Shown: positions 7,201 through 64,000 of the stretch, piece by piece
Numbering within the stretch: position 1 is the first letter of the stretch
Layout: each line of letters opens with the position of its first letter
Source: Strigamia acuminata
Lineage: Eukaryota
Direction of reading: 5' to 3'
DNA: 64,000 nt
Assembly (NCBI GenBank): GCA_949358305.1
Contig: OX442314.1
Coordinates: forward strand, 28,086,001-28,150,000
Position numbers and translations under genes: made by a program
The notes under the pieces: generated by a model
Databases searched by the model: none
Told to the model about the DNA's origin: nothing
The model's input: the letters and a program-made list of their open reading frames with translations, nothing else

Positions 7201-7259
7201 TAATAACCAAAAGGCAAATACAAAATATAAAGATCCGTAAAATCATACGGTTTTCACAG

Positions 7260-18156: not shown

Positions 18157-18640
18157 ATGAACATTCTGGTAATGTTTTTCTTTTACCTGTTATCTGGATG
18201 CATAAACATTTCAAAAAGCAATCGCTCGACAGGTATGCTTTACTACAAAATTCTGAATTGTTAATAGCAGCAAGTTAAAGTAGACGTACATTTTTATCTT
18301 TTCTTTAAGCATTGGAAGATAATTTTCCAGAAAAAGTTTCCTTTTCTGACTGTAATAAGCAACTCAATTTTCAACTATCTAATATTGTACAAATCATGAA
18401 TTCAAGACAAATACTCATCATTTATCAGGATGATTATTGTTGATAAATCATACATTTAATTCTTTCTTATATTTCTAAAACCATTTTTTAATTGCAGTAC
18501 CAAACTGTTTGTCCAAATTAATCCATTTCAATTGGATTGGAAAAATTCAAATATCAGCACAACGATTCACCAATACATCGCTAGATTTCATTTATACTCC
18601 CGTTCAAATGATACTGATTTGGATAGACAATTCTGAGCAG
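18157..18640 (+). CDS. Second IR paralogue, exons 1-3 only (18157-18232, 18310-18438, 18498-18640); remainder not found in the window
   Basis: Exon lengths (76/129/143) and phases identical to the first copy, open frame MNILVMFFFYLLSGCINIS...PNCLSKLIHFNWIGKIQISAQRFTNTSLD; about 400 bp upstream is also homologous (17750-18150 versus 8240-8660). Confidence 0.75.
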
Positions 18641-18706
18641 GTAAAGACGATCTAATCATGCTCTTATACCTTGTTCGCACCAGACAGTTTGGGCTAGCCT
18701 AAAGTT

Positions 18707-21730: not shown

Positions 21731-21810
21731 AGAAGAGCCAAAATTTGTTGTTTTTATTGTTGTTCAATAATTAAACTATCTCGTAATAATTTATTATGTT
21801 TTATTCTTTA

Positions 21811-30333: not shown

Positions 30334-31214
30334 CGTAGATCGATTCGCGAAGAGCGTAACACAACGCGAAAATCACACAGGCTCAGAGAGAGGCACTGAA
30401 ATGTCGCACGAGATTGGAGCACTTTTCACAATTCGGAGCACTTCACTGCACGATTCCCTCGGTGTTCGATGCGAAAAACCACAAATTGGGCAATTCCTTC
30501 TGAAGGAATCAAATAACCTCCGGTTGCCAGTCTGAGAGGGTCCGATCGGCTTCCTGGAGCCGCGGGAAACCTCACTTGTACCACGACAAGCACAACCGGA
30601 GAATACGTGTAAGCTTGACCGGACTCGATCCAAGGGCAAACACGATTCTAAAGGAACCCCCAAAAGCCTTAATAATATCTTAAAATTAACAATAGTATTT
30701 CGACAGAAGGAGAAATAGGTGAATCGATCGCGGTTGCGATCCTCGTGCAAATGAAGGCACGGCGCAGTTTTCTCGAAAAACTGGAAAAAGCGCAAATTCG
30801 GATTGAAAAATCCGAATTTCTTCTCGATAAATCGAGGCTCTTCGTCCGGAAAATAATAGATCGACGATACTGTGCATACGCCGGGGTATACACAGCGGAA
30901 TTCGATCCGTTTCTCGTTGAAAAGTGTCACTTCGACACTGGCGAAAGGAAAATCGACAAATAATCTGAAAATATAAAATATTTCTCTCGAAATTCGCGAA
31001 TCCCGCGTAATTTCGGAGAAAATTAGACAAATAATGGTGTGATTGACGACCCTGGTCGTCTGTGAACGTCGGTAAAACGTCGGCGTCGCAGGCGAGACGA
31101 AAATCGAGACAAAATGGCCGCCGAAAATCTGAAAATAAAAATATCGGCGCAAATTCGCGAATTTTGCGAAAAAGCGTCGAAAAATTAGGTAAATAGAACG
31201 GTTGTTCACTGAAC

Positions 31215-37200: not shown

Positions 37201-39825
37201 ACGATTTTCGTTTATTTTTCGCGATTTTTCGGTTAAAATCGCACATATCCGTGTTTTTCACACGAGGATCGCGTGTTGCGACGTGCACCGCGACTGATTC
37301 GTCAATTTCGCCTTATTTTGCCTTTCAGAGTCGAATTACCTTTGTTCCCGGATCTAAACCACAACAGATCCAGATGTATTCCAACGTCCTATCATCTCCT
37401 CCGCCTCCCGTTGCCACGACTAAGGCAGTCCCACCTCCTAAAAAGGTTATAACGCCGGCTGCGAACGTTGCGGATGCCACGGGATTATGGCATGCCAGGT
37501 TGGGCCATCTCCACACCAAAGCCATGCGGACTTTGGCGAACAATTCCCAAGTTTATGGACTCGATCCGGCTGCGGTTCGACAAGAACTTTCCTGCAACTC
37601 ATGTCGCATTGCCAAGTCCACACGCGCCTCGCATAAACCGATTCCCACACCTTCGACGACCAAACCGTTGGAGTTGCTGCACATGGACGTCTGGGGCCCG
37701 TCAAGACTGACTTCGATTGGCGGTGCTGATTATGCCTTCTCCATTGTTGACGACGCGACCCGATATTCGTGGATTTTTCCGATTGCACGCAAATCCGACG
37801 TCTTCACAACTTTCAAAGACTTTGTTTCTCGCGTTGAACGCATTACGGATTCCCGCGTCAAATCAATTCGCACGGATCGCGGCGGGGAATTTATTTCTAA
37901 GACTTTTGACCGTTACCTCGCTGACAAGGGCATTGTCGCACAACGGACCAATCCCGGAAGCCCACAAATGAACGGGGTCGCCGAACGCCTAAACCGGACG
38001 ATGGGCGACTATCTTCGCTCTATTACCTCCGAAACCGGTCTTCCGCACACACTTTGGGCTGAACTCGCTGTGACATTTTCGTACGTTAAAAATCGCAGCC
38101 CGCATTCGAAGCTTAACGACGAAGTTCCATATGTGTTGTGGCGCCAGCGTGCCCTCTCCGTCAAACATTTCCGAAAAATTGGTTCTAAATGCTGGGTGCA
38201 TTTCACCGCACCCGGGCGCAACAAAATGGATCCACGGGCGTGGGAAGGATTTCTAGTCGGTTACGCCTCCAACACTCGCGGTTATCGAGTTTGGAATCCG
38301 GCTACGAACACCGTCACGGAATCCGTTCACGTTCAAATCGATGAACGCCAGAATTTCAAATGCTCGCCGTTTTACGTTCCGGATCCGTACGAAAATGCTC
38401 CATTCATGGAGGAGCCTTCTCGCGTCACTACACCGTCTCGTGTCACTTTTGACGATGGCGCTTTCCCATCTGTCCCCTGGTCACGTCGACGTCGTGATTC
38501 CGACGATGAATCGTCTAATGACGATGATGAATTCCGCCATCGGGCTCCGTCAAGCGCTTCATCAGTCGCTTCATATCGCTCCGTCCTTGAGGAGGTCGAA
38601 GAGGACATTGCTGATGAATTGCCTCCTCCTATTCTGTTTGCGGACGATGTACCGGAGGACATCGGTTTGGACGTCACGCCTGACCCACCACTTCCGCTTT
38701 ACCGTCCTCGGAGGAGATTACGTCCCGACGCTTTGGCTCGTCAACCTCACACCCCTGAGGCCAGCGATAGTGAACTCGACGTTGATCACGATATCGAACA
38801 ATTTTTCGAACGCTATCCCGAACGTGATTCCGAGCACGACCCCGAAGATGATCCACTTGATAATCTCCTCGATGATCTCCTCGATAAGGCAGCCGCCTTA
38901 CCAGCGGCCGCTGCAACGCCTGCACCGCCCCTCGCTCCGTTACGCGCTCTTCACTGCCCCTATCGTTTTATTGGTGGAGATACGCCCTTCAGCGGATGGA
39001 GGAGGGAAGAGCATCTCCGGAAAGAACAAGCGCCTGGCAAAATCAAGGTCGACGTTTATTACTATCCGGAGCACGGTGTCCGCTTAAGGTCGAGAGGGGA
39101 CATCGAAAGATATTGCGTCGCTCACCAACTTCCGTATGAGGAGGACATTTTCTTTTTCGGCAACCTCGAACATCAATTGCAGGACGAGCAACCTGTTCAT
39201 CGCGTCCTTATGTGTTTTCGAGAGCCGTCCACGTACGCCGAAGCTGTTAAGCTACCCGAGGCACCGAAGTGGACCGAGGCAATCGATGAGGAGCTCACGA
39301 CTTTCAAGGAACGCGAAGTTTATAAGGAAGTTCCACGACCCCCGGACAAGACAATCCTCGGGTGTAAATGGATTTTTCGGTTGAAATCGGATGCCACCGG
39401 GAAAATTCACCGCTACCGTGCTCGACTTGTCGCACAAGGTTTCCGCCAAACAATGGGCGTTGATTTCGATGAAGTTTTTGTTGAATAGTGTTGCAAACTT
39501 CTGCAAATAGTGACAAATGTAGTGGATTGGAAAAACACATCAGGTGAAAGAAAGAGACATCATGTTAACAGGTGAGAACCAAAACATCAAGTGATCTTTA
39601 TTGATTGGTCACATGACCTCAATGCAAAAAGCGCCACCTGTAGGCAGCATACAGACACTGTATGTAAACAAACATTGCGATCACTCGCGTTGGCCAAACA
39701 CATACACTAACACTTAGTTACATGATAATACGTAAAGATATATATACACACATGTTGTAAAAGTGATTGCTTACCAATATACATTATATCTTAACATTCG
39801 GCCCCCCGTATTATCTCATTTCTTA

Positions 39826-42800
39826 TTAAGCCCGCAAAAAGCTCAAATCAACTAAGAAGCGATCGCAAAACTTTACCAAGTCAGCTTTGTCAACTGACTT
39901 TGTAAAAGTGTCGGCATGATTGGACTTTGTGCCTACGTGAACGATTAGAAGATTATCTCTTTTAACAAGTTCTCTTATAAAATGGTAACGGATGTCAATG
40001 TGCTTTGTTTTTCTATTCTCAACACAAGATTTTGTGAAGTCCACTGCTGATATGTTGTCGCACATGACATAATGAGAGAATCTTCCAGCCAATTCAGGGG
40101 ATATTTCGTGCAGAACACGAACAATCCAAATATAGTCCTTAACAGTTTCTGTAAGGGCTACGTACTCCGCCTCCATTGTTGACAGTGTCACGTTCCGTTG
40201 TTTGAAGGTCCGCCAGTAGATGGGTGTGCTACCCAAAGTCACTAGTGTTCCTCCAACGGAAATTCGGTCGTCTCTGTTGTTCGCATAATCGGAGTCGCTG
40301 TATCCGATTACCTCGATCCGATCATTCGGGAACAACATTAATCCGTGGTTTCTTGTTGTTCTCAGATAACTGAGTAAGTCGAGTAGCGCAACCCAGTGGT
40401 CCCACCCTGCATTTGATTGAAATTGGCTCAGGATGTTCACTGCATAAGTCATGTCGGGCCTTGTTCTCGACGCGATGAATGCTAAACATCCAAGTAAACT
40501 TCTATATGGAATTACTTCCATGACTTTGAATTCATCAATTGTGTCCGGACAATCTCGTTTCGTGAGAACAGTTGCTTTCGTCATCGGTTGAGATCGAATC
40601 TTCACATGTTCCAAGTGATTTTTGAACTTCAACAACACTTTGTTCACGTACGATCTTTGATGTAGAACCAATTGTTGTTTGTGCGAGTGAAATTCGACTC
40701 CTAGCAACTTCTTCGTTTGTCCGAGAATCACTAAATCGAATTGCGTTCCAATCATGTTGAGTATTTTCATCGCATCTTCGTACTGCTTTCCGAAGACAAC
40801 GATATCGTCAACGTAGACGATTAGATACGCAATGTCTCCGTATTTATAAACGCAATTGCACCAATTGACGTGTTCTAGTCCTAATTTCAATAAAGTCTCC
40901 TCCAGTTCTATTCCCCATTCTCTTCCAGACTGGTGCAAGCCATAGATGGCTCGGAGGAGCCTGCAGACATAGTTCTCCTTGCCTTCAATGATGAAACCTT
41001 TTGGCTGGCGCATGTAGACTGTTTTATGCAATTTTGCATAAAGGTATGCACACTTGACGTCTGCCTGAATGTATGACCATTTGAGCATACAGACGAGTAG
41101 CGTGAACATAAAGCGCACGATTGAAAAGTCTACCACGGGTGAGAATGTCTCCTCATAGGATTCGCCGTAGACTTGGGAAAACCCTTGCGCGACAAGTCTC
41201 GCCTTATAACGTGCAATTTCTCCCTCTTCGTTCTGTTTGGTCGTATAAATCCATCTGCAACCCACTATCTTAGTGTTGGGCGGCGGTGGAACAAGTTCCC
41301 AAACCTCGCGCTCATGCATGGTGTCAATTTCATCGTTCATCGCTTGGCGCCATTCATCCTTTTCGGGTAAAGTCGCAATTTCCTCATAACGTACGGGTAA
41401 GTGGACCTCTAGATGATTGGCTTCGAAGTTGATATTGATATCGTCAAAGTCCACGTCAAGACTATCTGTCGTCGTGTTTGATTCTGAGGGCTTTTTCTTT
41501 CTTTTGTCCTCAAACAGATGCTCTGGTACGCGAAGATTGTGGTCAGTACAGTAACGCTTCACCTCGGGTATCGAGCGTAACTTGGGTTTGTCGTAGCCCT
41601 CGATTGTGTACTCGACATCTCTCTGTCCAGTCGGTCTGACTTTCTCCGTTTTCTTCCAAACTAATGCTGGAATGGTTGGAACTGGATTCAAAAGTCCTTG
41701 TCCGGGTTGTGGCGAAGTGCCCTGCAACTTCACTTCTGGTAAATTATGATGCAACTTGTCATCTGGCAGTCTAAATTTCAATTTAACTGGGGGCAATTCC
41801 AGTTGTGGATCTTCCTTCTTCTTAACTGGTACTGGCGGGGGTAGCGGCGGCCTGACATCTTCATCCGAATAATATTGGCGCTCATTGTCAATGTCCAAAT
41901 TGTCGTCCAAATTATCGATGTATGTCGTGTATTTTTCTGGTAGGCCCAGCACGCCTTCAACACCGCGCCTGCTCTCCACGAACTTCACGTCGTTGGTTTC
42001 AATTACTTTGGAAAACTCCGGCAGCCACACTCTATATCCTTTTGTGATTCTTGAATACCCGAGCATAATGCCATGCAGACTCTTGTTGTCGATTTTGCCA
42101 TCTCGAATTCTTTTCTGCACAAAGCATAAGCTCCCGAATTTTCTCAAATGTCTAAGTGATGGTTTCCGTCCGTAATACAATTCCATCGGCGTCTTGTCCG
42201 AATTCAGCTTTGCGATCCTGTTCCTGAGATAGTTGAAAGTCAGGATGGCCTCTCCCCAGAATCGATGTTCCAAGCCGGCATCGTACACAAGCGCTCGCAT
42301 TCCATTTGCTAATGTCTGGTTGAGTCTCTCGGAAACGCCATTTTAGACTGGAGTGTACGCGTTAGTCCTCTCGTGGGCGATTCCTAGTCCTTGGAGGTAC
42401 TCTCCAAACTTGTTTGAGCAGAACTCCATCCCGTTATCTGTACGAATTGCGAGAACCAATTTCCCAAGCAATCGTTCTATTCGTTTCACGTGTTTTTGGA
42501 AAATGTCAAATACTTCGTCCTTCTTCTTCATTAAGTACACTGTCGAATAACGAGAGAAGTCATCCGTGATAGTTAAGAAGTATATGTTTCCCGAGAGTGT
42601 TGGTGTACTAAATGCTCCACACACATCCATGTGTAGCAATTGGAGTGGCTCTGTCGATCTAATTCCTGGCAACGACTTATGAGGAATCGCCTTCTTCTTG
42701 GCCAATGTGCAAACGTCGCATTGTGTAATTGGCACGTCCAAAATTGGCAACCCAATTACTGCACCTCCTTTGCTCATTGCTTGGACGCTTGGAAAATAGA

Positions 42801-44294
42801 TGTGTCCGAGCCGCTCATGCCAGAGTCTTGCTTCCTCAGGATTAGACGCACTCTTCGTTGTACTTTGTGTTGAAATAGTTAGCTCTTGTCTCTTCTGTTC
42901 ACCAACATTCGCTTTGTTATTCGCTTTCTGTCTTAGTTTTCAAAGTCGGGCTTCTGGTCGCTCAGTTTGATATAATATAGACGATCCTTTTTCACGCCTT
43001 CCATCAGTTGTCTCTTCCACTGAGGATCGTATATCTTGACCAGTCCAGAGCCAACGGCGACTTTGCATCGTGCTTCGTCAATGCACGGTCCCGACAATAA
43101 GTTTCTTCGCATGTCCGGCGCATAATAAACTTTCTTAAGCGTAATCGGAATTGTCTCGTTTCCGACTAAACTCATCACGCAGACGTCCCCGACGCCCTGG
43201 ATTTGAATTAAAGTTTTCTTGTCCGCCTGACTTATTGTCCCTGTCGTTTCCTTGAAGTTGAAGAACTGGTTCCTATCTTTACAAAAATGTCCAGTGGCCC
43301 CAGTGTCGTAGATCCAACAGTTGTTGGCTGCGCTGCACTGTAACATCTCTTCCTCGCTCAACTCGGTGAGAAAACCGACATCGAACATGTTTGTGTCCAA
43401 TTCTTCCGCTGTATTCGTGTTTTGGCTGTTGTTTGACGGTAATTGTGCCGTGCAATCCCTCGCCCAGTGCCCTGGTTGATTGCACCGAAAACACGGCCCC
43501 CGTCCTGGTGATCCCGTCGTGTTTCCTCGAAAATTCCGCGAATTTTTACCGCCTCGATAATTCGATTTGCCACCCCTTTGTCCGCCTCGGTTGTTTTGGC
43601 TGCTGTTTCCTTGCTGTTGTTGGGATTTAGACGAATTATCATTGTTCTTTGTGCTTGTTCCCATGTTGAAAGCGTCCGTAATTGGCGCTTGGCCCGAATG
43701 TCTGCGTTGTTGCGCGAGTCTGCCCTCCTCAGCGACCAATTCCGCTTCAACCTTTTCCAGTGTGAAATCCTTATCGTCCCATCGATAAATACTCTGCACA
43801 ATTGACTGGTATTCTTGTGGCAGGTATCGGATGAGCTGGAATGCCTGATACAAATTGTCCAAATCGTGTTTGACGTCGGCTAATCGCTTCGCCGCATTGC
43901 GTATCTTCGCCGCGAATACGCCGATCGCCTCCGTCGCTGGGTCGTACTTCAGATTGAAGAATTCGTCCAACAGACGTATTATTCTCGCCCTCGAGACCGG
44001 TTCGAAGTTTGTCTTAAGCGTGTCCCACGCTGTTTTCGCGTCCTCGGTCCCGCTGAGCAATTCGTGGTATTGCTCCTCAATGGCGTAGTAGATTAGGCTG
44101 AAAGCCCGCCCCTTTCGCAGTTGAAAGTCCGAGCGATCTCGCCAAGACGCTCCCGGTGCCAGGGCTTCTTGTGTTCCATCGGTGAAGGCCCAACATCAGT
44201 GGTGCATCAACAGCACTTTGATTTGCTGTTTCCACGTATCATAGTTCGTCCTATTCAAAAGTGTAATCTTCCGGTCGAGTTTTTCCGTGTCCAT
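39826..44294 (-). pseudogene. Copia G gag-pol with two in-frame stops (44196-44198, 42343-42345) and a frameshift near 42935
   Basis: CFRCNQPGHWARDC, WIYDTGATGH, WHERLGH...CDVC, HMDVCG, RTDNGMEF, YVDD, YSDSDY, ADTFTK; divergent MBD-like WKKTEKVRPTGQRDVEYTIEGYDKPKLRSIPEVKRYC at about 41540-41665. Confidence 0.92.
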
Positions 44295-45055
44295 TGTGAA
44301 TTTAGTGTCCAACACACCAGAAACACAGCAAAAACACACACAAGATTGCTCAAAAACACTTTGAAATACTGTTAATCGCAACTGGGTGCAGTGTTGCGAT
44401 GTTAGTTCGCTCTTAATACTATGTTAGTGTATCCTAGTAACAACACTAAGCTAATAATGGTATTCGAAAATAATAACGAAATAAACGAAATAAATTGTTC
44501 ATCTGTGATGTCTTCCTGCTGCAGATTCACCACTTGTATTGTGTCGACAGCTTCGAATCACACTTCACGTGTGGTTGAGAAAAATCGTCGTATTGTTGAT
44601 TTTTCCTCGTTTTTCCGTCTCTCGTCTCGAAAAAAAACCAGTTCCTTCGAGAATCTTCTCGTTTTTGGCAATTCCCTGCTCGTTCACACTTCCCGTGTGG
44701 TTGTCGAGCGTCGTCGTCCTCGCGTATTCGTCGTCGAGTTGTTTTCTCGGCGAAAATTAACGCCACGTCGACGTTACGTATCGCGCCTCGCGATATTCGG
44801 AGAAATCGTCCGAAAATGGCCAAAATAAACGTATTAAATAAATGTTCTATAATGTTCGAACCCAATTAATGATCCTGTGCCGCTTGATGACCAATAATCG
44901 CTTGTAGAACCGTGGATCCTTGGCCTAAGCACAGGTTGATTCCATTCCTCATGGACGCCGCCATCTTGGATTTTGAGGAGAAACGCCCACTTTTTCACCT
45001 GTGGTTGACTTGAGGTATTTCTCTTCACTCTGCCTGTTTTTCCCACGTTGTTTGT

Positions 45056-45066
45056 GGCCCATAACC
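45056..45066 (-). promoter_or_regulatory. PBS complementary to the anticodon arm of initiator tRNA-Met (half-tRNA priming type)
   Basis: GGTTATGGGCC one base inside the 5' LTR; same type as Drosophila copia. Confidence 0.8.
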
Positions 45067-47714
45067 TTGTTGAATAGTGTTGCAAACTTCTGCAAATAGT
45101 GACAAATGTAGTGGATTGGAAAAACACATCAGGTGAAAGAAAGAGACATCATGTTAACAGGTGAGAACCAAAACATCAAGTGATCTTTATTGATTGGTCA
45201 CATGACCTCAATGCAAAAAGCGCCACCTGTAGGCAGCATACAGACACTGTATGTAAACAAACATTGCGATCACTCGCGTTGGCCAAACACATACACTAAC
45301 ACTTAGTTACATGATAATACGTAAAGATATATATACACACATGTTGTAAAAGTGATTGCTTACCAATATACATTATATCTTAACAGTTTTTAGTCCGGTG
45401 GTTAACTTCGTGCTCATCCGATTCTTTTTCTGCCTCCTAGTCGTTTTACTAGGATGGAGGGATCTCCACCTCGACGTCAAGTGTGCCTACCTTTACGGCG
45501 ACCTCGACCACGAAATTTACATGCGGATTCCCGCCGGCGCCACATGCACCTCACCCGACAACGTCTGGTTGTTAACCAAGTCACTTTATGGTCTTCACCA
45601 GTCGGGGCGCATGTGGTACCAGAAGCTCAACGAGACGTTAACCGACCTCGGATTCCAGAAATTTCCCGCTTGTAATTGCGTTTACGCATTTGGACATTCG
45701 GCTGTTATGTTAGTCTACGTGGACGATATCGTCGTATTTTACGCGTCGGAGAGTATCCGAGACCGTATTTTGGCGCTGATTTCCAGCAAATTCGACATCG
45801 TCAACCTCGGACCGATAACCAAATTACTCGGGGTAGAATTCGTGCGTCGCGATGGGAAAGTTTTCATGTCCCAACGCTCTTACATCGACAAACTTCTTAA
45901 AAAGTTCAATGTTTCGCCTGATGCACTCATTAAAGTGCCTGTCACACCGGGAACCACGCTCGTCAAAGGCTCGTTGGATAATCTCCCGGACTTTCCGTAC
46001 CGATCGCTCATCGGATCGTTATTATTCCTCGCTTCTCGCACTCGTCCCGACATATTATATTCGGTCATCGCTTTATCGCAGTATAATAACTGCTACGACC
46101 ACCGCCACATCAAGTGTTTGCTCCAAGTTCTCAAATACGTGGCGAACACGAGCGATTTCTCGATCGAACTCTCGGGGTGTAATTCCAGTCAGCTGTGGGG
46201 ATACACAGATGCGTCGTGGGCGAGCGACATTGCGACATCGAGAAGCTTCGGAGGATACATCATTTATATCGGTTGTGTGCCAATTGGCTGGAGCTGCAAA
46301 AAGCAGACCAGCGTCGCCTGTTCCACCATGGAAGCCGAGTTTGTGGCACTAGTCGAAATCGCTAAAGAGTTATACTGGTTGGACAGTATCTATCGAGTCT
46401 TTCCACCGTTAAACCGATTATCGAAACCGATTATTTTCTCCGATGCCCTCGCCTCGATCCAATTCACGAACAACGACATCAAGAACTCGAAAACCAAACA
46501 CATTCGAGTAAAGTTCCATTGGCTTCGAGAGTGGCATATTGCCGGATGCTTCGAACTCCGCAAAATTCCGGGTGAAATAAATGTTTCGGATATTTTCACG
46601 AAATGGCTTAGTTCCGAACGCCTCCGAAATTTGTTGTCCCGGATCTTCATCTCGAAATAATTTCATCGAACTGTTAATATCGACATTGCACATCGAAGGA
46701 GGGAATTGTTGGTCCTTGAAACCACTTCGGACGTTTATTTAACACTTTTTCGATGCGTAATGACGCTACCTGGACTTTTTCACATCATTGGTTATTATAT
46801 TTTTCTTTCCCCAAATGATTTAGTGTTTATTTCCTACTTAACTGGTTGTTACCAGTATATTTCCGTATATTTACTTTATATTGTAAGGGAAATGCATGGT
46901 GCCTGCATTAACTGTGTCTTAACACACTGGGCATCATGCATCGCCTATCTGTTTATACCTGTGTGTCGCTCGCTTCTGTCACCAGAGCGCACTGCCTTTT
47001 ATTCCAAGATGGCGACGCACACTGCTAAGTGTGCTCCTGTGCATTTCAATCCTGTTTTCGTAAGTTTTAGGTTAATAAATCGTTTATTTTGTTTATAAAT
47101 ATTTTGTTTCTCGTGTCTGCACGTAGATAAGTGCAGACACCACGCAAATTCGACCAGAACCGGCTCGAATTCGCGTACACGACGCGCCGCACGTCTCGTG
47201 CGTGCTATATCGTACGTGTTGGCTTATTTTTAAGCGTTTCCACTGCCTAGTCTGTGCTGTTTTTGCAGCATACCACCACAGGCTTACGGTCGAGGCGGTG
47301 AGGATTCGGGAACAGTTGACTGCCCCGTCGAGCATCCCGCAACCAGGGCGCCAGGTTCAGGCTGGACGAGCAGCGTCTGCAGAGGCGCCAGCCCAGCCGA
47401 GCCCGAAGCGCCAAAGGCAGGAGCCACCGCCCTCCACTTGGACGGAGGAGATGACCGTGCGGCACGCGGCCGCGATGGTGGATTGGCGTGCCACTCACCC
47501 CAAGGCCACGCTGTTCCAGGTGGAGTGCGAAGAGAAGCGTCTGCGTCGCCGCTTCAAGGAGGTGGCGAGAAGGGCGCGTGCCGACGCCGTACGGGCGAAG
47601 GCGTTGGAAGAGGCCGAAGCTGCCGCCGTGCCGGCAGCGACCCAATCGGTCGAGGAACCTGGAGACAGCGAACAAGCCGCACAGGCTGTGTCCGTTGCTC
47701 TGGATCGCCCTGAC

Positions 47715-50700
47715 TGTTGGTCAAAAGACCATTTATTTATCGATATCAAATGTCGTTCATGTTATTTAGTTCTTAGCTCGATGTAATTCGATGTATTAAT
47801 TGCGTTTTATCACTTATATATGTCTAATACGGCATTTATTTATGCTTTTGTGCTGTCACATACGTAATTCCGTATGATTTGTATTGTTATCTATGAGATT
47901 CATTCTTTTCTTAACTTTAATGTTGTTTTCCGGCACCAGAGTGCCCACGTTGTATTCAATCTGTATCCAAGATGGCAGACATCTCAGTTAGAGCTTTCCT
48001 GCCAATTTTCTCTCCAATATGTAAGTTTATTTTGTTTTCAATGATTAAATAGAATTATATTTTGTTTTAACTCGTTTTACACGTTTGTATAAGTGTAAAA
48101 CACTTCTTTGCATTGTATTTCGGCGCCGCATTTCACGATACGGATGCGTATCGTTCGTCGCTCATTTGCGAACATCGGCGACGCCATTTCCGTTATCGGA
48201 ATTAACCGTCGCATATTTGCGACGCCATTTGCACGCTTCCCGGCGATATTTCGCCAATATCTGCGCCCCTCTGTCCTACATTTGGTAGCAGAGGATGGTT
48301 GTCTGCTAGAACAACCATTTCTCGATTAATTTTCGACCCATATTTCGTGAAAACGATTTGTGCGCCGAAAAGTTGTTTATTTTCAGATTTCACGAATCCA
48401 CACGGCGCCATTTTGTTTCCTGGACGTCGCCGACGTTTCCACGACGTTACCGATAGCCAGGGCTATCGATTTCAACGATATTCGTTTAATTTTGTCCAAT
48501 TTCTCGCGGGTTTCGCGGATTTTGAGGCAAATTTCTTTTATTTTTGCAGATTTTTCGACAAAACTGGATTTTCGACACTGCTTAGCACGAAGCGGCAGTT
48601 CCAACGAGAACCGAACACTAGATTGTTCGCCGCTTAGTTCCCCGGTGAACGGCGGTTATCACCGATCTGTACAAGTGGACGAAGAGCCTCGATTTATTCG
48701 AGAAGATTTCGGATTTCACATCCGAAATAGCGCTTTCTCCAGCTTTTCGAGAAAGCTGCGCCGTGCCTTCATTTGCACGAGGATCGCATCCGCGATTGAT
48801 TCGTCTATTTCTCCTTCTTTCGACTTTACCTTTGTTAGAATTAAGGGTATTTTGGTGTGGGACCTTATTAGATTCGACACAGCTCTTCGGGCATTCCGTC
48901 CACCGCTGTGTTTGTATTTTGTGACAAGGCTGAGCCCTGCGCCACCTAGCATTCCCGTGACCCCAGGTGGTCGTAAAGGACGCTAGGGAGACACTTGTCA
49001 CAAGCTATCAGCTGATTGTAGCATCAGCTCCCCGTTGAAGGTTTCCGCCTCGAAAGTGTGTGTGAAGTGCTTCAGTTCAGTGCTCCGAATCGAAGTCAGC
49101 ATTTGTGCAGTGCTCCAGTATTTAACGTACCATTCCTTGAGTCAGTGTGTTCGTCGCGTTGTGTCGAGTTTTCCACTCCGCAATGAAGAAAGCGTCGGAA
49201 TTATCGGGCGGAACGGTTCCCGTACTCACCGTTGGGAACTATGAATCCTGGCAGCGCTCGATGCGCATGCTTCTAAAATCCGAAGGTTTATGGAGACACG
49301 TGACCGAGGAAAAGGAGGCCGAGCACCTTGCAACTTTAAATGAAAAGGAAAAGGACCGTTATGCTGTGAAAAAGGACAAAGCACTTGGTCACATATATAT
49401 TCACGTCAGTGAAGCGAAACGATCGGCCCTCGACGCTTGCAATACACCTAAGCAAGCATGGGACAAGTTGGCCACCATTTATGCACCGAGTTCCAGGGCC
49501 AGGCGAGCGGCCATGAGATGGGAATTTTTGAGCCTCCAACTCAAACCTGGTGAAGACATGCCTGATTTCATCGGTCGTGTGGACCATTTTGTTCAACAAT
49601 TAAAAGACGTTGGTGAAAATGTCTCAGAAGAACAACACTCTTTCCAATATCTCAAGGGTTTACCACCGGAATATGCCCAGGCCACGTTTGCAGTTTACCA
49701 CTGGCCCGATCCGAACTTTACTCCAACCAAAGTGGCGGAACAGTTATTGTCCGAGCAGATGCGTTTAAAGGCTATGGGATTGACTAGCCAACAGTCTGCA
49801 CATACCTCAAAAGGACAGTTTCGCCAGCGTAATCAATCTCGTGGACCGCGGGATTTATCTAAAATCAAGTGTTTCAACTGTGATCAAATGGGTCACTACG
49901 CTAATCGTTGCCCTCAATCACCACGTGGAGACAGGAATCAGTCCACAGCCTCAGTACAGCGTTCGTCGCGAAGTAAAAGCCGCAGACGTAATAAAAATGC
50001 CGCTGCCAAAGTTGAAGACAATCGTCCACGTGGAAGTTCACGTCCGAAGCGAGAGGGGACATTCTTTTGCAGTGCTCCACAGATTATTGAGCGTCCTACG
50101 GTCCATTTTATGCAATCCAATGAATGGATCGTGGATTGCGGTGCAACGAATCACGTTTCTCACGTGCGTGACTGGTTTACAGACTTTTCAAATATCCAGC
50201 CATTTGATATTGCGTTAGGCCAAGGCAAATCACAGGTGACAGGACGAGGGACAGTTCAATTGCTCACGTCGGTCGACGGCGCGGATTGCACCATCAATTT
50301 GAAGAACGTTCTCTTTGCGCCGAATTTCGAAGCCAATTTGATTTCGGTGTCAAAGATTGACAAGACCAATCACCATGTGCATTTCTTTAATAGAGAGGTG
50401 AATGTTTATCAAACAGACTTCCGTTCACCTATTATTCGTGCGAGAGAACGCGGTGGATTATACTATTTGGACGGTTTATGCTCAACGCATCTTGTAACGC
50501 CAACTGTTTCAACAATTACTCAACCGCCAGTCCAAATAACACTCCAACCTGTGCAAACACTAGTCACAACCGAAGTAGATTTCGATAATGTGCCAAAGCC
50601 AAAAAAGGGCAAATCAAAACAAAGGGAAATTTCAGACTTTCGCATAACTTTGCCTGCTATCGAACCAGCGAAGCAAATGCCAGTTCAGCAAATTCCTAAC

Positions 50701-51386: not shown

Positions 51387-54300
51387 TGTAGATCAAGAGA
51401 TCATTTATTATTTCACAATTACAGAGTTTTTCCTTTATTTATTTATAATGTATATGTTTTGTTTTCCCCACTTATGTATCTAGTTTTGATACATATCGTA
51501 TTTTAAGCATTGAGCACCATGCGCCCTTTATCATTTTCTTTAATTTTCACTTAATGTGAAATATTGTCGCTTAGTAAAGTGAGCACCAGATGGTGTCTTA
51601 TCGTTTTTGCTTTTGTTATCCAACATGGCGTCTCCCGCACAGGACGGTCGCCTTTATGTATTCTCTTCATTTATAGCAGTATGTAAGTGTATATTTTCAT
51701 TAAACCGTTTTATTTAGGCTTTTTTATTAAGCTTTTGTTCTTTGTTTGCCACGTTTGATAAGTGGCAAACACACACGTTTTCACGAGGCCGTGCGGAGAA
51801 GCGCGCCCGTGCCACGTCGTCATTATTACGCTCATTTCGGCCATTAATAGCTTCCACTGGCCCGTTTTATTTTTTTCACCACGCTACAAGTGGTAGCAGA
51901 GAGCTGGGGACGACCCATCGTGTTATTTATTGCTAATTATCGACGCCATTTTCGCGAAATTCGCGAAAATTCGCGCCGAGTTTGTGTATTTTCAGATTTT
52001 CACCCGACGGCCGCCATTTTCGACGATTTTCATCATTTTCAACCGATTTTTCGACGATTTTGGAATTTTCCCACGTGCAGTGCACCTTGTACGGCGTGTC
52101 GGTACCTGAGTTACACAGATTTTCGACGATTTTTCCAGGATTTACGACGATTTTTGAAGTTTTCGCGACGATTTTCGCGTTCTGATGTAAATCGACGAGT
52201 TTTGATGCAAACCGACGATTTTCGACGTGATAACTCGCCGTCGTCGCTCATCTCATCTCAACATATCACTAATCATTCTCTCCCTACAGTAGTCGCAATA
52301 TACTTTGTTAATTTTAAGATAGGTTTAAGTTTTTGGGGGTCAATTAGATTCGGCTTCACCCTTCGTCCATTCGGGCACGTGAAGCTAGTATTCTTGGGCA
52401 AGGCTATCCCTGCGCCACCTAACACTCCCGTGGCCCCAGGTGGCTTGCAAAGGACGTTAGGGGGATACTTGCCTAAGGTTTTTAAACCGATTGTAGCATC
52501 GGTTCCCCATCGTGGTTTCCGCCTTGACAGTGCTCCGATTCTCAGTGCGACGTTTTGTGCTTCGAGACGTCCAGTCTCAGTGCTTCAATCAAATTTAGTC
52601 ATTCCCTGTGTCAGTGCTTCTTTTCACGATGTCCAAGTCTTCAGACGCGTCGGTCGGCAAAATTCCGATTTTGTCAATCGGAAATTATGAATCATGGCGC
52701 AGATCGATGCGCATGTATTTGAAGTCAGAAGGATTGTGGCATCACGTCACGGAAGACACCGAGGAAGCCGACCTTAAGACATTTAATGACAAGGAATTGA
52801 AAAAGTACAAGAAAAGAAAGGACCGTGCATTGGGTTTAATTTACTGCCAAGTGAGCGAGGCGAAACGATCCGTCTTAGATCCCTGCAATACACCAAAGGA
52901 GTCATGGGACGCCCTCGCAAAAGTGTATGCACCATCTTCTCGTGCTCGCAAGGCCGCTATGCGCCGCGAGTTTCTTGGTCTTCATCTCTTACCTGGCGAA
53001 GAGATGGTAGATTTCATCGGCAGAGTGGACGATCACGTCCGAAAATTGACTGATGTGAAAGAAACAATATCAGATGACCATAAAGCTTATCAGTATTTGG
53101 ACATGTTGCCCAGCGAATATTCCCAAGTTTCTTTTGCAATATATCATTGGCCAGACGACGACTTCAAGCCGATTAAAGTAGCTGACCAATTACTTTCGGA
53201 ATATCTCCGGCTCAAATCCATTTCTTCCCGGGATAATCCGAATTCGTCATCTCAAGCTTTTGCCAATGAACGTCGTGGACGGGACCAATCGCGCCCTTCA
53301 CGACCATTAACTCAAATTCAGTGTTATAACTGCGGGGACATGGGCCATTATGCGAATCGCTGTCCACATCCTCCGAATCCAAATAGAATTGACAAAAATC
53401 GCCCAACTGCCACTTTTCAACGCAAATCACGCAGTTCCAGCCGTAAACGCAAGCAGAAGGCAAATCAACAAGATAATTCGAAACCAAGGGGGAATTCTCA
53501 AGTTCGAAGAGAGTCCAACTTCTTTTTGAATGCGCCACCACAAGTTGAGGTCCCAATTGCACACTTCATGCAAAATTCGGAATGGATCGTCGATTGTGGG
53601 GCAACGGACCATGTTTCTCACGTCAAGGCTTGGTTTTCGGATTTTCAACCAGTTACACCTTTTGACATTGAGTTAGGCCAAGGCCATTCACAGGTTACTG
53701 GAAAAGGAACTGTGCGAATTCAGACCTTTATTGACAATTGCGAATGTGTGGTGAATCTACACGAAGTCTTGTATGCTCCGAACTTCGAGGCGAACCTCAT
53801 CTCGGTATCGCGGATAGACAATAATAAACACCACATCCACATATTTAATTCCGAAATAAATGTGTATGAAACCGATATTAGACACAGCGTCCTCCGCGCG
53901 AGACAAAAGGGAGGATTGTATTACGTCGATGGATTGCGTCCGCCCACGACAGTTACTGTGAACAATCCTCAAGTTCAAAATGAGGTTTTGCCATCTACAA
54001 ATCCCAAAACTATGGTTACGATTGAGGAAGATTTTCCAAAAATTAAGAAAGCATCCAAGAAGTCGAAGACAAGAGACATTACTGATTTTCGCATCGAGTT
54101 GCCAAATCCAGTGCCTAAAAATCTCCTTCCTCAGACTTTCCATCCTCCTCCCGTACCTACACCTGTCCTTACCAATTCCAACCCCATTGTCCCGTCCTAT
54201 GCTACGGCCCTGAATAGCATTCCTCCCAAATCCAATCCAGGCAAGCAGATTAAGCAGAATGGTCAAAAACCAATTGCTACTGCAACGTCAAAGAAGGACA

Positions 54301-57300
54301 GTACGGGACTTTGGCACAGCCGGTTAGGGCATTTACACGCCAATGCCATTAGACTTTTGGCCAACAACCCACAAGTTTATGGTTTTACACCGGAAGAAGT
54401 TCGCCAAGAGCTCGCCTGCAATCATTGCCGAATCGCTAAATCAATTCGAGCGTCGCATAAACCAGATCCACATCCAATTACCACTAAGGCATTAGATCTG
54501 ATGCATATGGATCTTTGGGGGCCAGCACCTGCGACATCATTCGGCGGTGCTCGCTACGTTCTAACAATTATTGACGACGCCACTCGTTATACTTGGATAA
54601 TTCCCATCGCCCAGAAATCACAAACTTTTCAGTGTTTTAAAGACTTTGTCTCCCGTGTCGAGCGAGTAGCAAATACTCGAATCAAAGCCATACGGACTGA
54701 TCGAGGCGGGGAATTTATTTCCAACGAATTTACCAAATATCTCAACGATTCTGGAATTCAAGCGCAGAGGACTAACCCTGCATCCCCTCAGATGAATGGA
54801 ACGGCCGAACGAATAAATAGGACGATGGCCGACCATTTTCGTGCAATTTTGGATGAAACTCAACTTCCTCTTGAGCTTTGGGCCGAGATTGCCGTCAATT
54901 TTGCATACGTCAAGAACAGAAGTCCCCATTCCAGATTGAACAATGAGGTCCCTTACATTCTCTGGCGCCAACGAGCTCTTTCTCTCCGACACCTTCGCAA
55001 GATTGGATCTAAATGCTGGGTCCACTACACAGCCCCTGGTAGAAGCAAATTCGAATCACGAGCTTGGGAAGGGTTTCTCGTTGGTTATGCGACAGGAACC
55101 AGAGGATATCGTGTCTGGAACCCCATTGATGATAAAGTAATCGAAACAATTCATGTACAGATTGATGAAAAACAGTCTTTTCGACGATCGAGTCACAATT
55201 CTCGACGACAAACGTCATTGGCTGAAGATCTTAATGCCCAGTCTGTTCCTACGACGACGTCAAGGGTGAATTTTGACGACAACGTTGGTTATTCTGATTG
55301 GCCAGCCAGAATGTCGGACTCGGAAGACCAGAACACGTCGAGTGATTATGATTCGGACGATTCAACACCCCAAGGTGCCGTGGGAGGTATTTCTCCACCG
55401 CCTTCTCCACCAGTTCGGGTTCCAACTCCGAAACCGTCTCCTGTTTTGACTCCGACAGTGTCACCTTTTCATACCCCGGACAATTCACCTCCGGGTTCAC
55501 CTAATCCTTTCGTAACGGCACGTCGGGGCTCTGGACCAACGCATCGTCCGCCACCAGCGCCGACTGAAACTCACACTGTTGTTCCAACAATCATCCCTAC
55601 AGCCACTACATCTTATAAATGGCGTTACGTAGGTGGCACCGGTCCTTGTAGCCACTGGAAACGGGAGGAACATCTGAGGAAAGATCAATTCCCCGGACAA
55701 ATAAAGATAGATGTGTACTACTTCCCGAAACCAGGCTTACGGCTGCGCTCAAAACCGAACATTCGAGAGTATTGTGATAAAGAGGGCATTATCTACGATG
55801 ATGACCTTTTCTTCTTCGGCAACATGGAACACCAATTGCCTGAGGTTCCTCCAATTCGACCCATTATCCATTTATGCCGCCGTGAACCGTCCAGTTATTC
55901 CGAAGCTGGGAAATTCCCTGATGCACCAAAATGGCGTGAAGCCATCGATGAGGAGCTCGGAACCTTCAAGAAAAGGGAGGTGTATCAGGAAGTGCCTAAA
56001 CCGCCAAATACAACAATACTGGGCTGTAAATGGATTTTTAAATTAAAAACGGACGCGACCGGAAAGATCAATCGTTACCGTGCGAGATTAGTAGCGCAAG
56101 GCTTTCGCCAAACCATTGGGATTGACTTCGACGAAGTTTTCAGCCCAGTTGTAAATTTCGTGCTTATCCGTTTCTTCTTTTGCCTCCTCGTGGTCCTCAA
56201 AGGATGGCAAGACACTCACCTCGACATAAAATGCGCCTACTTATATGGAGAGCTTAAACATCGAATTTATATGAGAATTCCTGCAGGCGCAATGTGTGAT
56301 GATCCGGAAAATGTTTGGTTGCTCACGAAATCGTTATACGGGTTACACCAGTCCGGTCGTGAATGGTATCAAAAATTGGACGAGACTCTCAAAGAGTTAG
56401 GTTTTCGCAAGATGCCCGCCTGCAACTGTGTCTACGTTTTCGGCAAATCAGCGGTCATGCTCGTCTACGTGGACGATATAGTTCTATTTTATTCGTCTAA
56501 GAGCATTTTGACCCAAGTACTCCAACTGATCAGCAGTAAATTCGAGATTGTGGACTTGGGACCAATAACCAAACTGCTGGGAGTCGAATTCGTGCGACAT
56601 ATGGGCCAAACTTTCATGATTCAAAGCGTATTCATCGAGAAACTGTTAAAGAAGTTTGGCATAACGGCAGACAACGTCATTAAAGTGCCTGTCACACCTG
56701 GAACAACTTTAGTCAAGGGACCAAAAGAAAATTTGGCAGATTTCCCATACAGATCGCTGATTGGATCCCTTCTGTTCTTGGCATCTCGAACCCGACCGGA
56801 TATATTATATTCCGTGATTACTCTGTCTCAGTACAACAATTGTTATACCGCGGCACACATCAAAGCATTGCTTCAAGTCCTACGTTACGTAGCTAACACC
56901 GCGAATTATTGTATTGAACTGTCTAACTGCACATCGGGACAACTCTGGGCCTACACGGACGCATCGTGGGCCAGCGATGTGGCTACTTCCCTGAGTTTTG
57001 GTGGATATATTGCGTTCATTGGGAACACACCGATTGGATGGTCATGTAAAAAACAGACCAGCGTCGCAGCTTCGACAATGGAAGCGGAGTTTGTAGCATT
57101 AATGGAGGTCGTCAAAGAGCTTTATTGGCTTGACCACATTTACTCCGAGCTTCCATTGCTCAATCGTGTTTCCAAGCCCATCATATTTTCGGACGCATTG
57201 GCATCCATCCAGTTCTCGACCAATGACGTGGAAAATTCACGCACGAAGTACATCCGTGTGAAGTTCCACTGGCTCAGGGAGTGGCATTCCGAGGGACGTT

Positions 57301-58135
57301 TCGAACTGAGGAAAATACCCGGGAGCATAAACGTCTCTGACATATTCACCAAGTGGTTAAGTGCGGACCGGCTTAATCTACTGATTGCGAACATTTTTGA
57401 TTTTCATCGGATACGTCATTCCTAATTTATTTATCCAGAATTTGAGAATTACTGAGCATTAGATTGGGAATTGTGTTTATAAGTGCCCTAAAAGTACCCG
57501 GCTCGGTAATTCGCTTTCTTTAGTTATAATTATTGTATACGACATTGGAATCATGTCTTTTCCGGGGTTACAGTCTCGACTTTCTTATTTCATTTGTTAT
57601 TTGTTCATCCCTGTGATTGTGAAAAGGGGGAATTTGTAGATCAAGAGATCATTTATTATTTCACAATTACAGAGTTTTTCCTTTATTTATTTATAATGTA
57701 TATGTTTTGTTTTCCCCACTTATGTATCTAGTTTTGATACATATCGTATTTTAAGCATTGAGCACCATGCGCCCTTTATCATTTTCTTTAATTTTCACTT
57801 AATGTGAAATATTGTCGCTTAGTAAAGTGAGCACCAGATGGTGTCTTATCGTTTTTGCTTTTGTTATCCAACATGGCGTCTCCCGCACAGGACGGTCGCC
57901 TTTATGTATTCTCTTCATTTATAGCAGTATGTAAGTGTATATTTTCATTAAACCGTTTTATTTAGGCTTTTTATTAAGCTTTTGTTCTTTGTTTGCCACG
58001 TTTGATAAGTGGCAAACACACACGTTTTCACGAGGCCGTGCGGAGAAGCGCGCCCGTGCCACGTCGTCATTATTACGCTCATTTCGGCCATTAATAGCTT
58101 CCACTGGCCCGTTTTATTTTTTTCACCACGCTACA
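51387..58135 (+). mobile_element. Copia E: full-length, apparently intact CopiaMBD element
   Basis: LTRs 51387-51888 and 57635-58135 (only a one-T homopolymer difference seen); TSD TATTC; PBS TGGTAGCAGAG at 51891; PPT GAAAAGGGGGAA. Confidence 0.97.
52629..57425 (+). CDS. Copia E gag-pol polyprotein, about 1598 aa
   Basis: Uninterrupted ORF with all catalytic motifs; MBD WKREEHLRKDQFPGQIKIDVYYFPKPGLRLRSKPNIREYC at about 55640-55820. Confidence 0.96.
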   Translation: MSKSSDASVGKIPILSIGNYESWRRSMRMYLKSEGLWHHVTEDTEEADLKTFNDKELKKYKKRKDRALGLIYCQVSEAKRSVLDPCNTPKESWDALAKVYAPSSRARKAAMRREFLGLHLLPGEEMVDFIGRVDDHVRKLTDVKETISDDHKAYQYLDMLPSEYSQVSFAIYHWPDDDFKPIKVADQLLSEYLRLKSISSRDNPNSSSQAFANERRGRDQSRPSRPLTQIQCYNCGDMGHYANRCPHPPNPNRIDKNRPTATFQRKSRSSSRKRKQKANQQDNSKPRGNSQVRRESNFFLNAPPQVEVPIAHFMQNSEWIVDCGATDHVSHVKAWFSDFQPVTPFDIELGQGHSQVTGKGTVRIQTFIDNCECVVNLHEVLYAPNFEANLISVSRIDNNKHHIHIFNSEINVYETDIRHSVLRARQKGGLYYVDGLRPPTTVTVNNPQVQNEVLPSTNPKTMVTIEEDFPKIKKASKKSKTRDITDFRIELPNPVPKNLLPQTFHPPPVPTPVLTNSNPIVPSYATALNSIPPKSNPGKQIKQNGQKPIATATSKKDSTGLWHSRLGHLHANAIRLLANNPQVYGFTPEEVRQELACNHCRIAKSIRASHKPDPHPITTKALDLMHMDLWGPAPATSFGGARYVLTIIDDATRYTWIIPIAQKSQTFQCFKDFVSRVERVANTRIKAIRTDRGGEFISNEFTKYLNDSGIQAQRTNPASPQMNGTAERINRTMADHFRAILDETQLPLELWAEIAVNFAYVKNRSPHSRLNNEVPYILWRQRALSLRHLRKIGSKCWVHYTAPGRSKFESRAWEGFLVGYATGTRGYRVWNPIDDKVIETIHVQIDEKQSFRRSSHNSRRQTSLAEDLNAQSVPTTTSRVNFDDNVGYSDWPARMSDSEDQNTSSDYDSDDSTPQGAVGGISPPPSPPVRVPTPKPSPVLTPTVSPFHTPDNSPPGSPNPFVTARRGSGPTHRPPPAPTETHTVVPTIIPTATTSYKWRYVGGTGPCSHWKREEHLRKDQFPGQIKIDVYYFPKPGLRLRSKPNIREYCDKEGIIYDDDLFFFGNMEHQLPEVPPIRPIIHLCRREPSSYSEAGKFPDAPKWREAIDEELGTFKKREVYQEVPKPPNTTILGCKWIFKLKTDATGKINRYRARLVAQGFRQTIGIDFDEVFSPVVNFVLIRFFFCLLVVLKGWQDTHLDIKCAYLYGELKHRIYMRIPAGAMCDDPENVWLLTKSLYGLHQSGREWYQKLDETLKELGFRKMPACNCVYVFGKSAVMLVYVDDIVLFYSSKSILTQVLQLISSKFEIVDLGPITKLLGVEFVRHMGQTFMIQSVFIEKLLKKFGITADNVIKVPVTPGTTLVKGPKENLADFPYRSLIGSLLFLASRTRPDILYSVITLSQYNNCYTAAHIKALLQVLRYVANTANYCIELSNCTSGQLWAYTDASWASDVATSLSFGGYIAFIGNTPIGWSCKKQTSVAASTMEAEFVALMEVVKELYWLDHIYSELPLLNRVSKPIIFSDALASIQFSTNDVENSRTKYIRVKFHWLREWHSEGRFELRKIPGSINVSDIFTKWLSADRLNLLIANIFDFHRIRHS

Positions 58136-62700: not shown

Positions 62701-64000
62701 ACATGTCCCCAAACGCCGTTGTATTTGAGCAATAACTGGACCTGCACGGACCAGGTGGCATAGTTCGTGCCATCGAGCTTTTTAATATCCTTGTAATCGT
62801 CGTGCTTTGAAGCCATCACGACGACACCAGGAAAATGCACAATAATAATTGGTTATGCACAGAGAGAACACAATTTCGGAATTTATTCCGCACACACACT
62901 TCACAGGAGCACTTAATCACACAATGCACAATTGTCTCTAGTCCCAAAAACCAAAAAGGAAGGCGAAAATACAGTTTCAACCCGGGGAATCTCAATAAGT
63001 GAGATTGGAAAACCTTGACTGGCAATCCACCAACTCTTCCGTCCGACCTCCTGGGGTCGCGGGATGGTTGGGGGCCCTGGATAAGCCCAGCCAAGAATAC
63101 AGTGCTACGTGCCCGACTGGACGTAGGGTAGCACCGAATCTAACAAGGGACCAACAACAAAAACTTAAAACTATACAGAGTTTCACGAAAGTATGCAAAT
63201 AAATCAAAACAGTCTAGATGTGAAGTTGGCCAATTACAGGATCCTTGCGCCGTAATCGGTTCCCACGATGTGTTCAACGTCGGCTTCACGTGTCGAATTA
63301 ACTCACACGCACGCCGGGGTGCTAATGTGAGGAGAAACCCTCTCAACTGGTGCACCCTGCGTGCAAAACCAGGGTTTCCTCTTGAAATCGTCGTTGCGCA
63401 CGTCCGCGCCTTCGTAATTCCACGTCGGGTGGAAATCACGGCTCTTCGTGCTAAATATGGCTGTGTACGTGGACTTACACGTAAACACAGCTCCAAAACG
63501 AATATTCACCGTCGATGGCGATGAAAAACGATCAAAATGGTCGCCACAGAACAAATCTTCGTCCTCGACGATCCTACGACAAATATCGGTCGTTTTGCGT
63601 CGAAACTCCGTCGTGTCGACGTGAATGGGCGTCGTCTCGCTGGCAATACTGATTGCCTCGGCAAAATAACGTCGTATTGGCGTGTATCGGTTCAGATGCA
63701 CGTCTGGGCTGCGATTCGCTTCACGGCCGAATCCAAAATGGCCGCCGCAGGAAAATTTCACAACGACGTCGGAAAAAGTGCTTATTTCGCACAGAAAAAT
63801 TTCGAAATAAAGCTGCTTACACACTAAAATGTCCGTAGTAATGTCCGCACACGTTGCCGATCGTTTCCAATCGATTTGGCGAAGAAAATCCGTCTGCGTC
63901 GGTCGGTTCGCGTTTGCGGCGAAGTCGGGCGACGTCTTGGCTTCGTCTCGCGTCCAAAAAGGTCGGAAATCCTTTACAAACTGGTCAGGCCGTCGAGAAC

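Follow-up and report, generated by a model that had tools for sequence, protein, structure and literature searches.

The question raised by this locus is whether the pairing segments that recur in the 5' leaders of several Copia elements form a selected RNA, and what such an RNA would do. The window, by which the whole 64,000-nt stretch of analysed DNA is meant, is a nest of LTR retrotransposons, among them the related Copia elements A to F, which carry an MBD between integrase and RT. The Copia domain order gag-PR-IN-RT with RVT_2 was found in the host elements. The MBD profile (PF01429) scored above its cut-off in A, C, E and F, whereas B gave 15.7 bits, below the cut-off of 21, and D is truncated before the MBD position. 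By predicted domain order and the MBD, A to F match the CopiaMBD family as set out in the main text of de Mendoza et al. 2019 (PMC6673714), where the subject is the MBD and integration. That main text makes no mention of a leader, secondary structure or primer binding, and two of the three supplements held no match to the anchor word TTAGA(T/A)TCG of the motif described below. In a literature search conducted mostly without subscription journals, the name CopiaMBD was found in that paper only.

In a tree that did not include the published CopiaMBD sequences, A, B, C, E and F grouped with MBD-bearing database proteins with moderate support. The RTs of A and B are 88% identical, and those of E and C are 75-78% identical to the rest of that group. 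The closest named gag relatives were Strigamia maritima entries, and an MBD match was obtained in 7 of 10 tested database protein relatives. Gag relatives also included pseudoscorpion (Cordylochernes) entries (P0039, P0041, P0048), and an MBD match was obtained in proteins from Logan, ENA and other sources (P0043, P0045, P0046, P0052, P0054, P0057, P0069, P0079). CopiaMBD-like elements may have a wider host range than the 2019 paper names.

The element chosen for the coordinates below is E, which is delimited as follows.

51387..51888, + strand: 5' LTR of E, 99.8% identical to the 3' LTR (57635-58135), with the TSD TATTC
51891..51901, + strand: primer-binding site (PBS) of E for the 3' end of the initiator tRNA, 11 nt in E and 18 nt in B and D
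52629..57425, + strand: single intact gag-pol ORF of E, 1598 aa (gag, CCHC, PR, IN, MBD, RT)

A PBS for the initiator tRNA 3' end is present in B, C, D and E, and the tRNAiMet reverse primer found in the accessible part of PMC5087684 matches these sites. Elements A and D share 95.9% identity across 1889 nt, so that the independent families carrying the motif number four, not five. The internal regions of A and D have 96% identity and the 3' ends of their LTRs are almost the same, whereas the U3 of the A 3' LTR (5536-6060) and that of the D 5' LTR (47715-48281) are only 78% identical; these LTRs are possibly recombinant.

Two further elements lack the motif. Element C (36408-47280) has identical LTRs (575 of 575 bases), a TSD and stop-free pol pieces; its upstream leader is kept, and the RNA motif, gag and the protease are lost to a deletion that starts at about 37345, just short of the motif position, and reaches into pol. 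Nested in the RT of C is G (39478-45385, - strand), a distant Copia (RT 40-44% identical) with identical LTRs, an MBD-like stretch without a Pfam match (PF01429 gave none in the tested segment) and a different PBS, which we take to be of the internal initiator-tRNA type.

Outside these elements, the window contains a 37-nt unit, partly palindromic and tandemly repeated about 12 times (9009-9452), three 116-nt tandem copies (15031-15386) and, in its AT-rich middle, several duplicated non-coding blocks, 70-90% identical (7258-9826 and 15186-18662). A 261-nt inverted repeat (21806-22066 and 23175-23435), 96% identical and 1.1 kb apart, resembles a MITE or DNA transposon, and degenerate Gypsy-like protease/RT/RNase H frames (23883-24574 and 31762-33679) are split by the insertion of B.

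Between the PBS and gag, the leader holds a three-hairpin RNA (P1-P2-P3) of about 160 nt, whose parts in E and whose other copies are listed here.

52344..52352, + strand: anchor word TTAGA(T/A)TCG, invariant and single-stranded
52352..52386, + strand: P1 hairpin (outer helix 52352-52359/52379-52386; inner helix 52365-52368/52373-52376)
52388..52392, + strand: invariant linker GTATT, whose last U pairs with G and closes P2 in 5/5 copies
52392..52478, + strand: P2 long stem (base 52392-52402/52468-52478; mid-stem 52418-52423/52456-52461)
52426..52454, + strand: top of P2 (TCC/GGA 52426-52428/52452-52454; apical helix 52431-52435/52442-52446; hexaloop CCAGG(T/A) 52436-52441)
52410..52418, + strand: side-bulge word of P2, 9 nt complementary to the 5' strand of the initiator tRNA
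52485..52504, + strand: P3, a 7-bp Watson-Crick hairpin, 5-7 nt after P2
29..190, + strand: copy in A (P1-P2-P3)
30493..30651, - strand: copy in B (P1-P2-P3), with an extra side hairpin in P2
48868..49029, + strand: copy in D (P1-P2-P3)
62988..63143, - strand: copy in F (P1-P2-P3)

An earlier, sequence-only reading had located five copies of the motif, and the anchor was indeed found at 29 (+), 30651 (-), 48868 (+), 52344 (+) and 63143 (-). All the arms it quoted for P1, inner P1, P2 base, mid-stem and apical stem are in the sequence, and its estimate of about 150-200 nt to the gag ATG agrees with the 151-197 nt measured from the 3' end of P2. The two hairpins that it described, P1 and P2, are part of the element, but it missed P3 farther 3', and the inner P1 arms that it saw as flipped in E and F, although present, amount to two ordinary compensated pairs. 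A model search of the window, C and G included, found no further copies. The motif also persists, as that reading had pointed out, in the diverged element F, with an RT identity of 53-55% and a Gag 35% identical to that of E. The anchor lies 285-327 nt from the gag ATG; the spacing to the PBS is loose (453, 581, 585 and >857 nt).

The unpaired words TTAGA-TC, the P1 internal loop, GTATT, CG and CCAGG are fixed across families. In E, a 5x2 internal loop separates the outer and inner helices of P1, and six of the eight pairs of the outer helix show a double change. P3 is a perfect 7-bp hairpin in 5/5 copies. B, F and the A/D/E group have P3 sequences that bear no relation to one another, and within that group A/D differ from E by compensated changes; each P3 was matched by 20-33 of 5000 shuffles, and such a hairpin occurred in 15 of 295 background leader windows. 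The bulge word of P2 is identical in A, D and E and absent from B and F (present in 2/4 families). A closing helix (P0) was rejected, as its partners differ between copies. Three pairs between the (C/U)CU of the P1 internal loop and the apical AGG are possible in 4/4 families with no covariation, and a pseudoknot between the two would be a lead only.

Covariation was counted on D, B, E and F; A, being almost a duplicate of D, was excluded. The helices were placed mainly from the conserved single-stranded landmarks, the mid-stem stayed outside this count, and for the 3' limit of the P2 base we used a short pattern whose choice was guided by knowledge of the stems. By this count, 118 of 124 helix cells were paired, and 18 of 31 pairs showed a compensatory change among the four families. 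Double changes between two sequences were canonical in both in 72 of 77 cases, and 14 of 26 one-sided changes kept the pairing. Permutations, which ignore phylogeny, gave a mean of 91.5 and a maximum of 108, and none of 200,000 reached 118. The earlier claim of covariation in five elements therefore holds for the pairing, with n = 4 independent families.

The leaders were also aligned by sequence only (MAFFT, five copies), a check that the sequence-only reading had proposed. The RNAalifold structure of this alignment was 89% paired, with a double change in 21 of 38 pairs; none of 500 shuffles reached the observed values and slid alignments gave 36-45% pairing, in controls that again ignore phylogeny. 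A model-fitted alignment, of a kind that leans to structure, gave a double change in 23 of 38 pairs. The evidence base is four families from one window, and four sequences are too few for per-pair significance of the R-scape kind.

Folding of single sequences was modest (z -1.7 to -2.4), and better folding was obtained for other stretches of the B, D and F leaders than for the motif. The shared fold costs 0-0.3 kcal/mol in B, D and F, and 0.2 and 1.8 kcal/mol in A and E, where the minimum free energy structure has an alternative P2 top; the apical stem of E has a U-U at its base. The anchor word is not rare alone (28 matches at one mismatch, 35 expected), and a sixth exact match at 8279-8287 has no structure. 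A compound apical pattern, derived from these same copies, gave five matches against 0.00 in 100 shuffles.

Similarity between motif copies (D-B 0.54, D-E 0.72, E-F 0.71, with a shuffled baseline of 0.50) departs from the RT tree, and B and D are the closest pair upstream of the motif (0.70-0.79). Two explanations are offered: a B copy whose sequence was replaced while its structure remained under constraint, or a module that spreads by recombination. As judged from covariation, the motif is a real, selected RNA fold, apparently undescribed, and the claim of a selected cis-acting RNA thus stands; of the three roles that had been offered with it (packaging/dimerisation, translation and ribozyme), a ribozyme is disfavoured, and translation by way of an IRES is weakened by the depletion of AUGs described below.

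The view that this RNA had not been described was borne out by the searches. Rfam 15 gave one weak match elsewhere in the whole window (E 0.3), and four permissive local scans gave nothing better than E 5.7. A literature search, with most subscription papers outside it, found no description of such a leader RNA and no covariation-defined cis RNA structure for animal Copia. Collections of contigs were scanned for outside homologous leaders, and none was found. Among viral contigs, protein scans confirmed 0/61, 0/153, 0/277 and 0/21 candidates, and patterns gave 0 and 1 match. Metagenome contigs yielded 0/118 confirmed protein candidates and 4 pattern matches, and genome contigs 0/101 and then 1/71. 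This last contig (L006, 1-3930) encodes a eukaryote-type Copia pol, 33% identical, and the match starts at base 1, so that it has no leader; its place on an Acidobacteria MAG contig is probably contamination. As motif homologues, L001-L006 scored at most 16 bits against 111-151 for the five copies on which the model was trained; they were regarded as chance matches and entered none of the counts. L002-L005 have no similarity to the window, and L004 and L005 resemble bacterial coding DNA.

The context of the fold was then considered along the leader, with the following features.

51625..51688, + strand: LTR AUG of E in strong context, then a GTAAGT donor-like site (putative exon 1)
51990..51995, + strand: putative acceptor-like TTTCAG of E, about 100 nt 3' of the PBS and common to B, C and D
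52515..52628, + strand: spacer to gag in E, with no AUG and with repeated AGTG(C/T) words
30376..31128, - strand: stop-free frame of B
48351..48983, + strand: stop-free frame of D
51998..52690, + strand: stop-free frame of E
63303..63998, - strand: stop-free frame of F

Sense AUGs between the PBS and gag numbered 1, 0, 2 and 0 in B, D, E and F against 9.9, 9.4, 7.5 and 17.0 expected, and 0, 0, 4 and 0 of 500 dinucleotide shuffles of the whole leader were as low. The part upstream of the motif contained 1, 0, 2 and 0 AUGs, with 4.5, 5.0, 4.4 and 10.8 expected; B and D have one extra AUG inside the PBS. This upstream depletion fits scanning through the element, for which an IRES is not needed. 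The spacer behind the fold is free of AUGs in 5/5 copies, and AGTG(C/T) occurs in it 2-5 times per 114-156 nt (five copies) against 1.9 per kb in the window.

Each leader also has a long stop-free frame (279, 211, 239 and 231 codons in B, D, E and F), of a length reached by 0, 1, 0 and 3 of 500 shuffles; in the leader of G, the frame has 112 codons and was equalled in 45 of 500. The frame of E crosses the RNA element, passes the gag AUG and has no Pfam match. As a conserved protein, the leader frames were rejected (no Pfam match at E below 0.2; 19-33% mutual identity in a gappy alignment), and no homologue of the B frame was found among 230 candidates.

A strong-context AUG followed by a donor-like site is present in the LTRs of B, C, D and E, the donor being weak in B. 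Together with the acceptor-like site behind the PBS, these motifs suggest a putative intron whose removal would take away U5 and the PBS. In the LTRs, the AUG lies in a CAA(G/C)ATGG word, a CACCAG(A/G) word stands 25-37 nt upstream and the donor-like site 49-58 nt after the AUG (51621-51688, 47968-48026, 36706-36766 and, on the - strand, 31449-31507); we take the two words to be YY1/TISU-like and CTCF-like, respectively. Series of short, stable hairpins precede the motif (D 48670-48810, B 30715-30850 on the - strand, F 63200-63480 on the - strand, C 37120-37345); they reach a local z of -5.2 and are largely absent from E; a candidate second domain there has strong local folding in B, D and F and a weak consensus (-6.6 kcal/mol).

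With something short of even confidence, we favour the reading, drawn by analogy, that the fold is a Psi-like, Gag-bound packaging/dimerisation element of CopiaMBD retrotransposons. It is favoured because of the position of the element between the PBS and gag, the AUG-poor and apparently scanned leader, the CCHC knuckle in Gag and the G-rich spacer. The helices would act as a scaffold presenting the fixed unpaired words, and 40S subunits would scan the leader to reach gag. As Gag accumulated, its CCHC nucleocapsid domain would bind the element together with the G-rich AGUGC/GUG spacer that follows. This binding would withdraw the RNA from translation and promote a loop-loop contact maturing into a dimer, two genomes thus pairing before particle assembly. 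Two CCAGG loops could form four G-C pairs around an A-A mismatch, and the 5' strand of the primer tRNA, once freed, might be held by the P2 bulge of A, D and E.

For two apical hairpins joined in an extended duplex, the calculation gave -14 to -21 kcal/mol, compared with a monomer value of -2 to -6; a gain of this kind is possible for any hairpin. Among different invariant unpaired segments, none share at least four complementary bases in 4/4 families. The loops themselves offer only two contiguous loop-loop pairs and are neither palindromic nor complementary, and the element is therefore not filed as a member of the Psi/DIS class. Several points tell against packaging. The spacing is tight to the AUG and loose to the PBS; if the splice-like sites are used, a spliced RNA without a PBS still carries the element; and if C moved without the motif, the element is dispensable, although C is recent and its counter-evidence ambiguous. 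Moreover, the unpaired words are fixed though the Gags are 35% identical, which makes a conserved host ligand as plausible as Gag.

A bolder reading, a ribosome-gated packaging switch, is improbable. The splice would remove U5 and the PBS, leaving an RNA that cannot be packaged, and would join the LTR AUG to the long non-conserved stop-free frame, by which 80S ribosomes would be driven through the fold; on unspliced RNA, the same AUG would stop after 23-30 codons and the fold would survive for Gag. With chosen donors and acceptors, B, D and E fit this scheme (frames to -42, -199 and +59 from the gag AUG), whereas F does not, its long frame stopping some 160 nt short of the motif.

Control of translation is the chief rival of the packaging/dimerisation reading and somewhat less probable than it. 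In this case, the fold would bind 40S, eIF3 or a host protein and bring ribosomes to the gag AUG, as an IRES, a shunt or a reinitiation enhancer, the need being created by the strong LTR AUG that opens an upstream frame. That AUG in B, C, D and E, the fixed spacing to the gag AUG across an AUG-free spacer and the pyrimidine-rich tract ahead of the element all fit, and loops invariant across very different Gags suggest a host ligand. However, AUGs are depleted over the whole leader upstream, which internal entry would not require, the leader of G is AUG-poor without the motif (4 against 11.0 expected), so that leaders appear to be scanned, and no Rfam IRES fold matched the motif.

An element for nuclear export, splicing or stability, letting unspliced genomic RNA escape processing as the retroviral constitutive transport element does, is improbable to the same degree as the switch. 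The PBS of B, C, D and E stands between a donor-like and an acceptor-like site, so that RNA left unspliced would need to be licensed, and a long stem with invariant internal loops would be suited to binding by a host protein. On the other side, splicing is suggested by motifs only, Rfam gave no match, and the element lies 3' of the putative introns, so that it would not mark unspliced RNA.

A role in reverse transcription, whether by giving the primer tRNA a second dock, by binding Pol or by pairing in cyclisation, has a still smaller chance. It draws on the P2 bulge, which in A, D and E complements 9 nt of the 5' strand of tRNAiMet, and extra tRNA contacts are used by Ty1 and Ty3, according to the accessible parts of PMC4974528 and PMC11381356. 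The 9-nt complement is, however, absent from B and F, a chance 9-mer tRNA match within 140 nt is estimated at roughly 4-10%, and B and E, the two elements that are complete, contain no perfect complement of at least 10 nt elsewhere.

A new self-cleaving ribozyme or other catalytic RNA is very improbable. Many invariant unpaired bases on a covarying scaffold are the usual signature of a tertiary fold, but a cut between the PBS and gag would destroy the template of reverse transcription, and no ribozyme was matched. In agreement with the earlier failure to recognise a hammerhead, HDV or twister core, Rfam ribozymes gave no match at E up to 10 and neither strand had a hammerhead core; a loose HDV-like descriptor had no matches in E and F and unrelated ones in A, B and D, that is, no shared topology. 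That there is no RNA element at all, and that DNA hairpins, protein-coding constraint or chance explain the motif, is hardly credible: the antisense strand folds with similar energy (lower in A and D) and in B, D and E a long open frame runs through the motif, but conserved G-U pairs and the one-sided changes that stay paired favour a sense RNA, the frame differs between B and D/E with peptides not conserved, and the permutation and slide controls fall below the observed values.

The fold belongs to the structured 5' cis elements of LTR retroelements, whose RNA structures have been detailed mostly from yeast Ty1 and Ty3. It is compact, has fixed loop bases and is kept across RTs 53-55% and Gags 35% identical. 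It is a candidate new Rfam family and bears on how one transcript is split between translation and packaging.

Its top, with a 5-bp apical helix, a 6-nt loop, an internal loop and a long stem, is like that of the IRE, HIV-1 TAR and HBV epsilon. As in those hairpins (PMC3884659 and PMC8466369, as far as accessible), a C1-G5 pair across the hexaloop is possible, here in 5/5 copies; the sixth base is U in A/D/E and A in B/F. With respect to the IRE, the 5-bp upper helix is present, but the triplet is CAG and not AGU and there is no single bulged C (accessible part of PMC8466369). The pseudotriloop rules given in the accessible part of PMC3884659 comprise a cross-loop C-G pair, a G-C closing pair and a 3' pyrimidine bulge, and a C-G closing pair switches the pseudotriloop to a TAR-like hexaloop; the closing pair of this fold is C-G (U-A in B), and the fold does not follow the pseudotriloop rules.

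The packaging analogy was drawn with Ty1 (PMC5454406, PMC4974528), Ty3 (PMC11381356) and BARE (PMC3735527), each as far as the accessible text describes it. According to these texts, the 5' end is well structured in Ty1, Ty3 and HIV-1, the Ty3 dimer site is a short hairpin tip (PMC11381356), and the TIPIRT of Ty1, with kissing loops, is a packaging/dimerisation region (PMC5454406). The CopiaMBD fold may be likened to Ty1 and Ty3 as a structured 5' region of a tRNAiMet-primed LTR retrotransposon; in both yeast elements, hairpin loops are the dimer contacts. It is unlike Ty1, where a long-range pseudoknot and complementary 7-nt loop motifs are described within the first 326 nt (accessible part of PMC5454406), and unlike Ty3 with its 6-nt palindrome (accessible part of PMC11381356), having neither a palindrome nor a complementary loop pair. 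Three nested hairpins in a non-coding leader of 0.7-1.2 kb also set CopiaMBD apart from Ty1 and Ty3.

Retroviral Psi/DIS regions have a self-complementary hexamer and a GACG loop, both absent from the CopiaMBD fold, which lies 450 to >850 nt after the PBS and 3' of the putative intron, not inside it. These regions also consist of a stem-loop cluster between the PBS and gag, with a G-rich unpaired spacer and a CCHC nucleocapsid partner, and in these three features the CopiaMBD fold resembles them.
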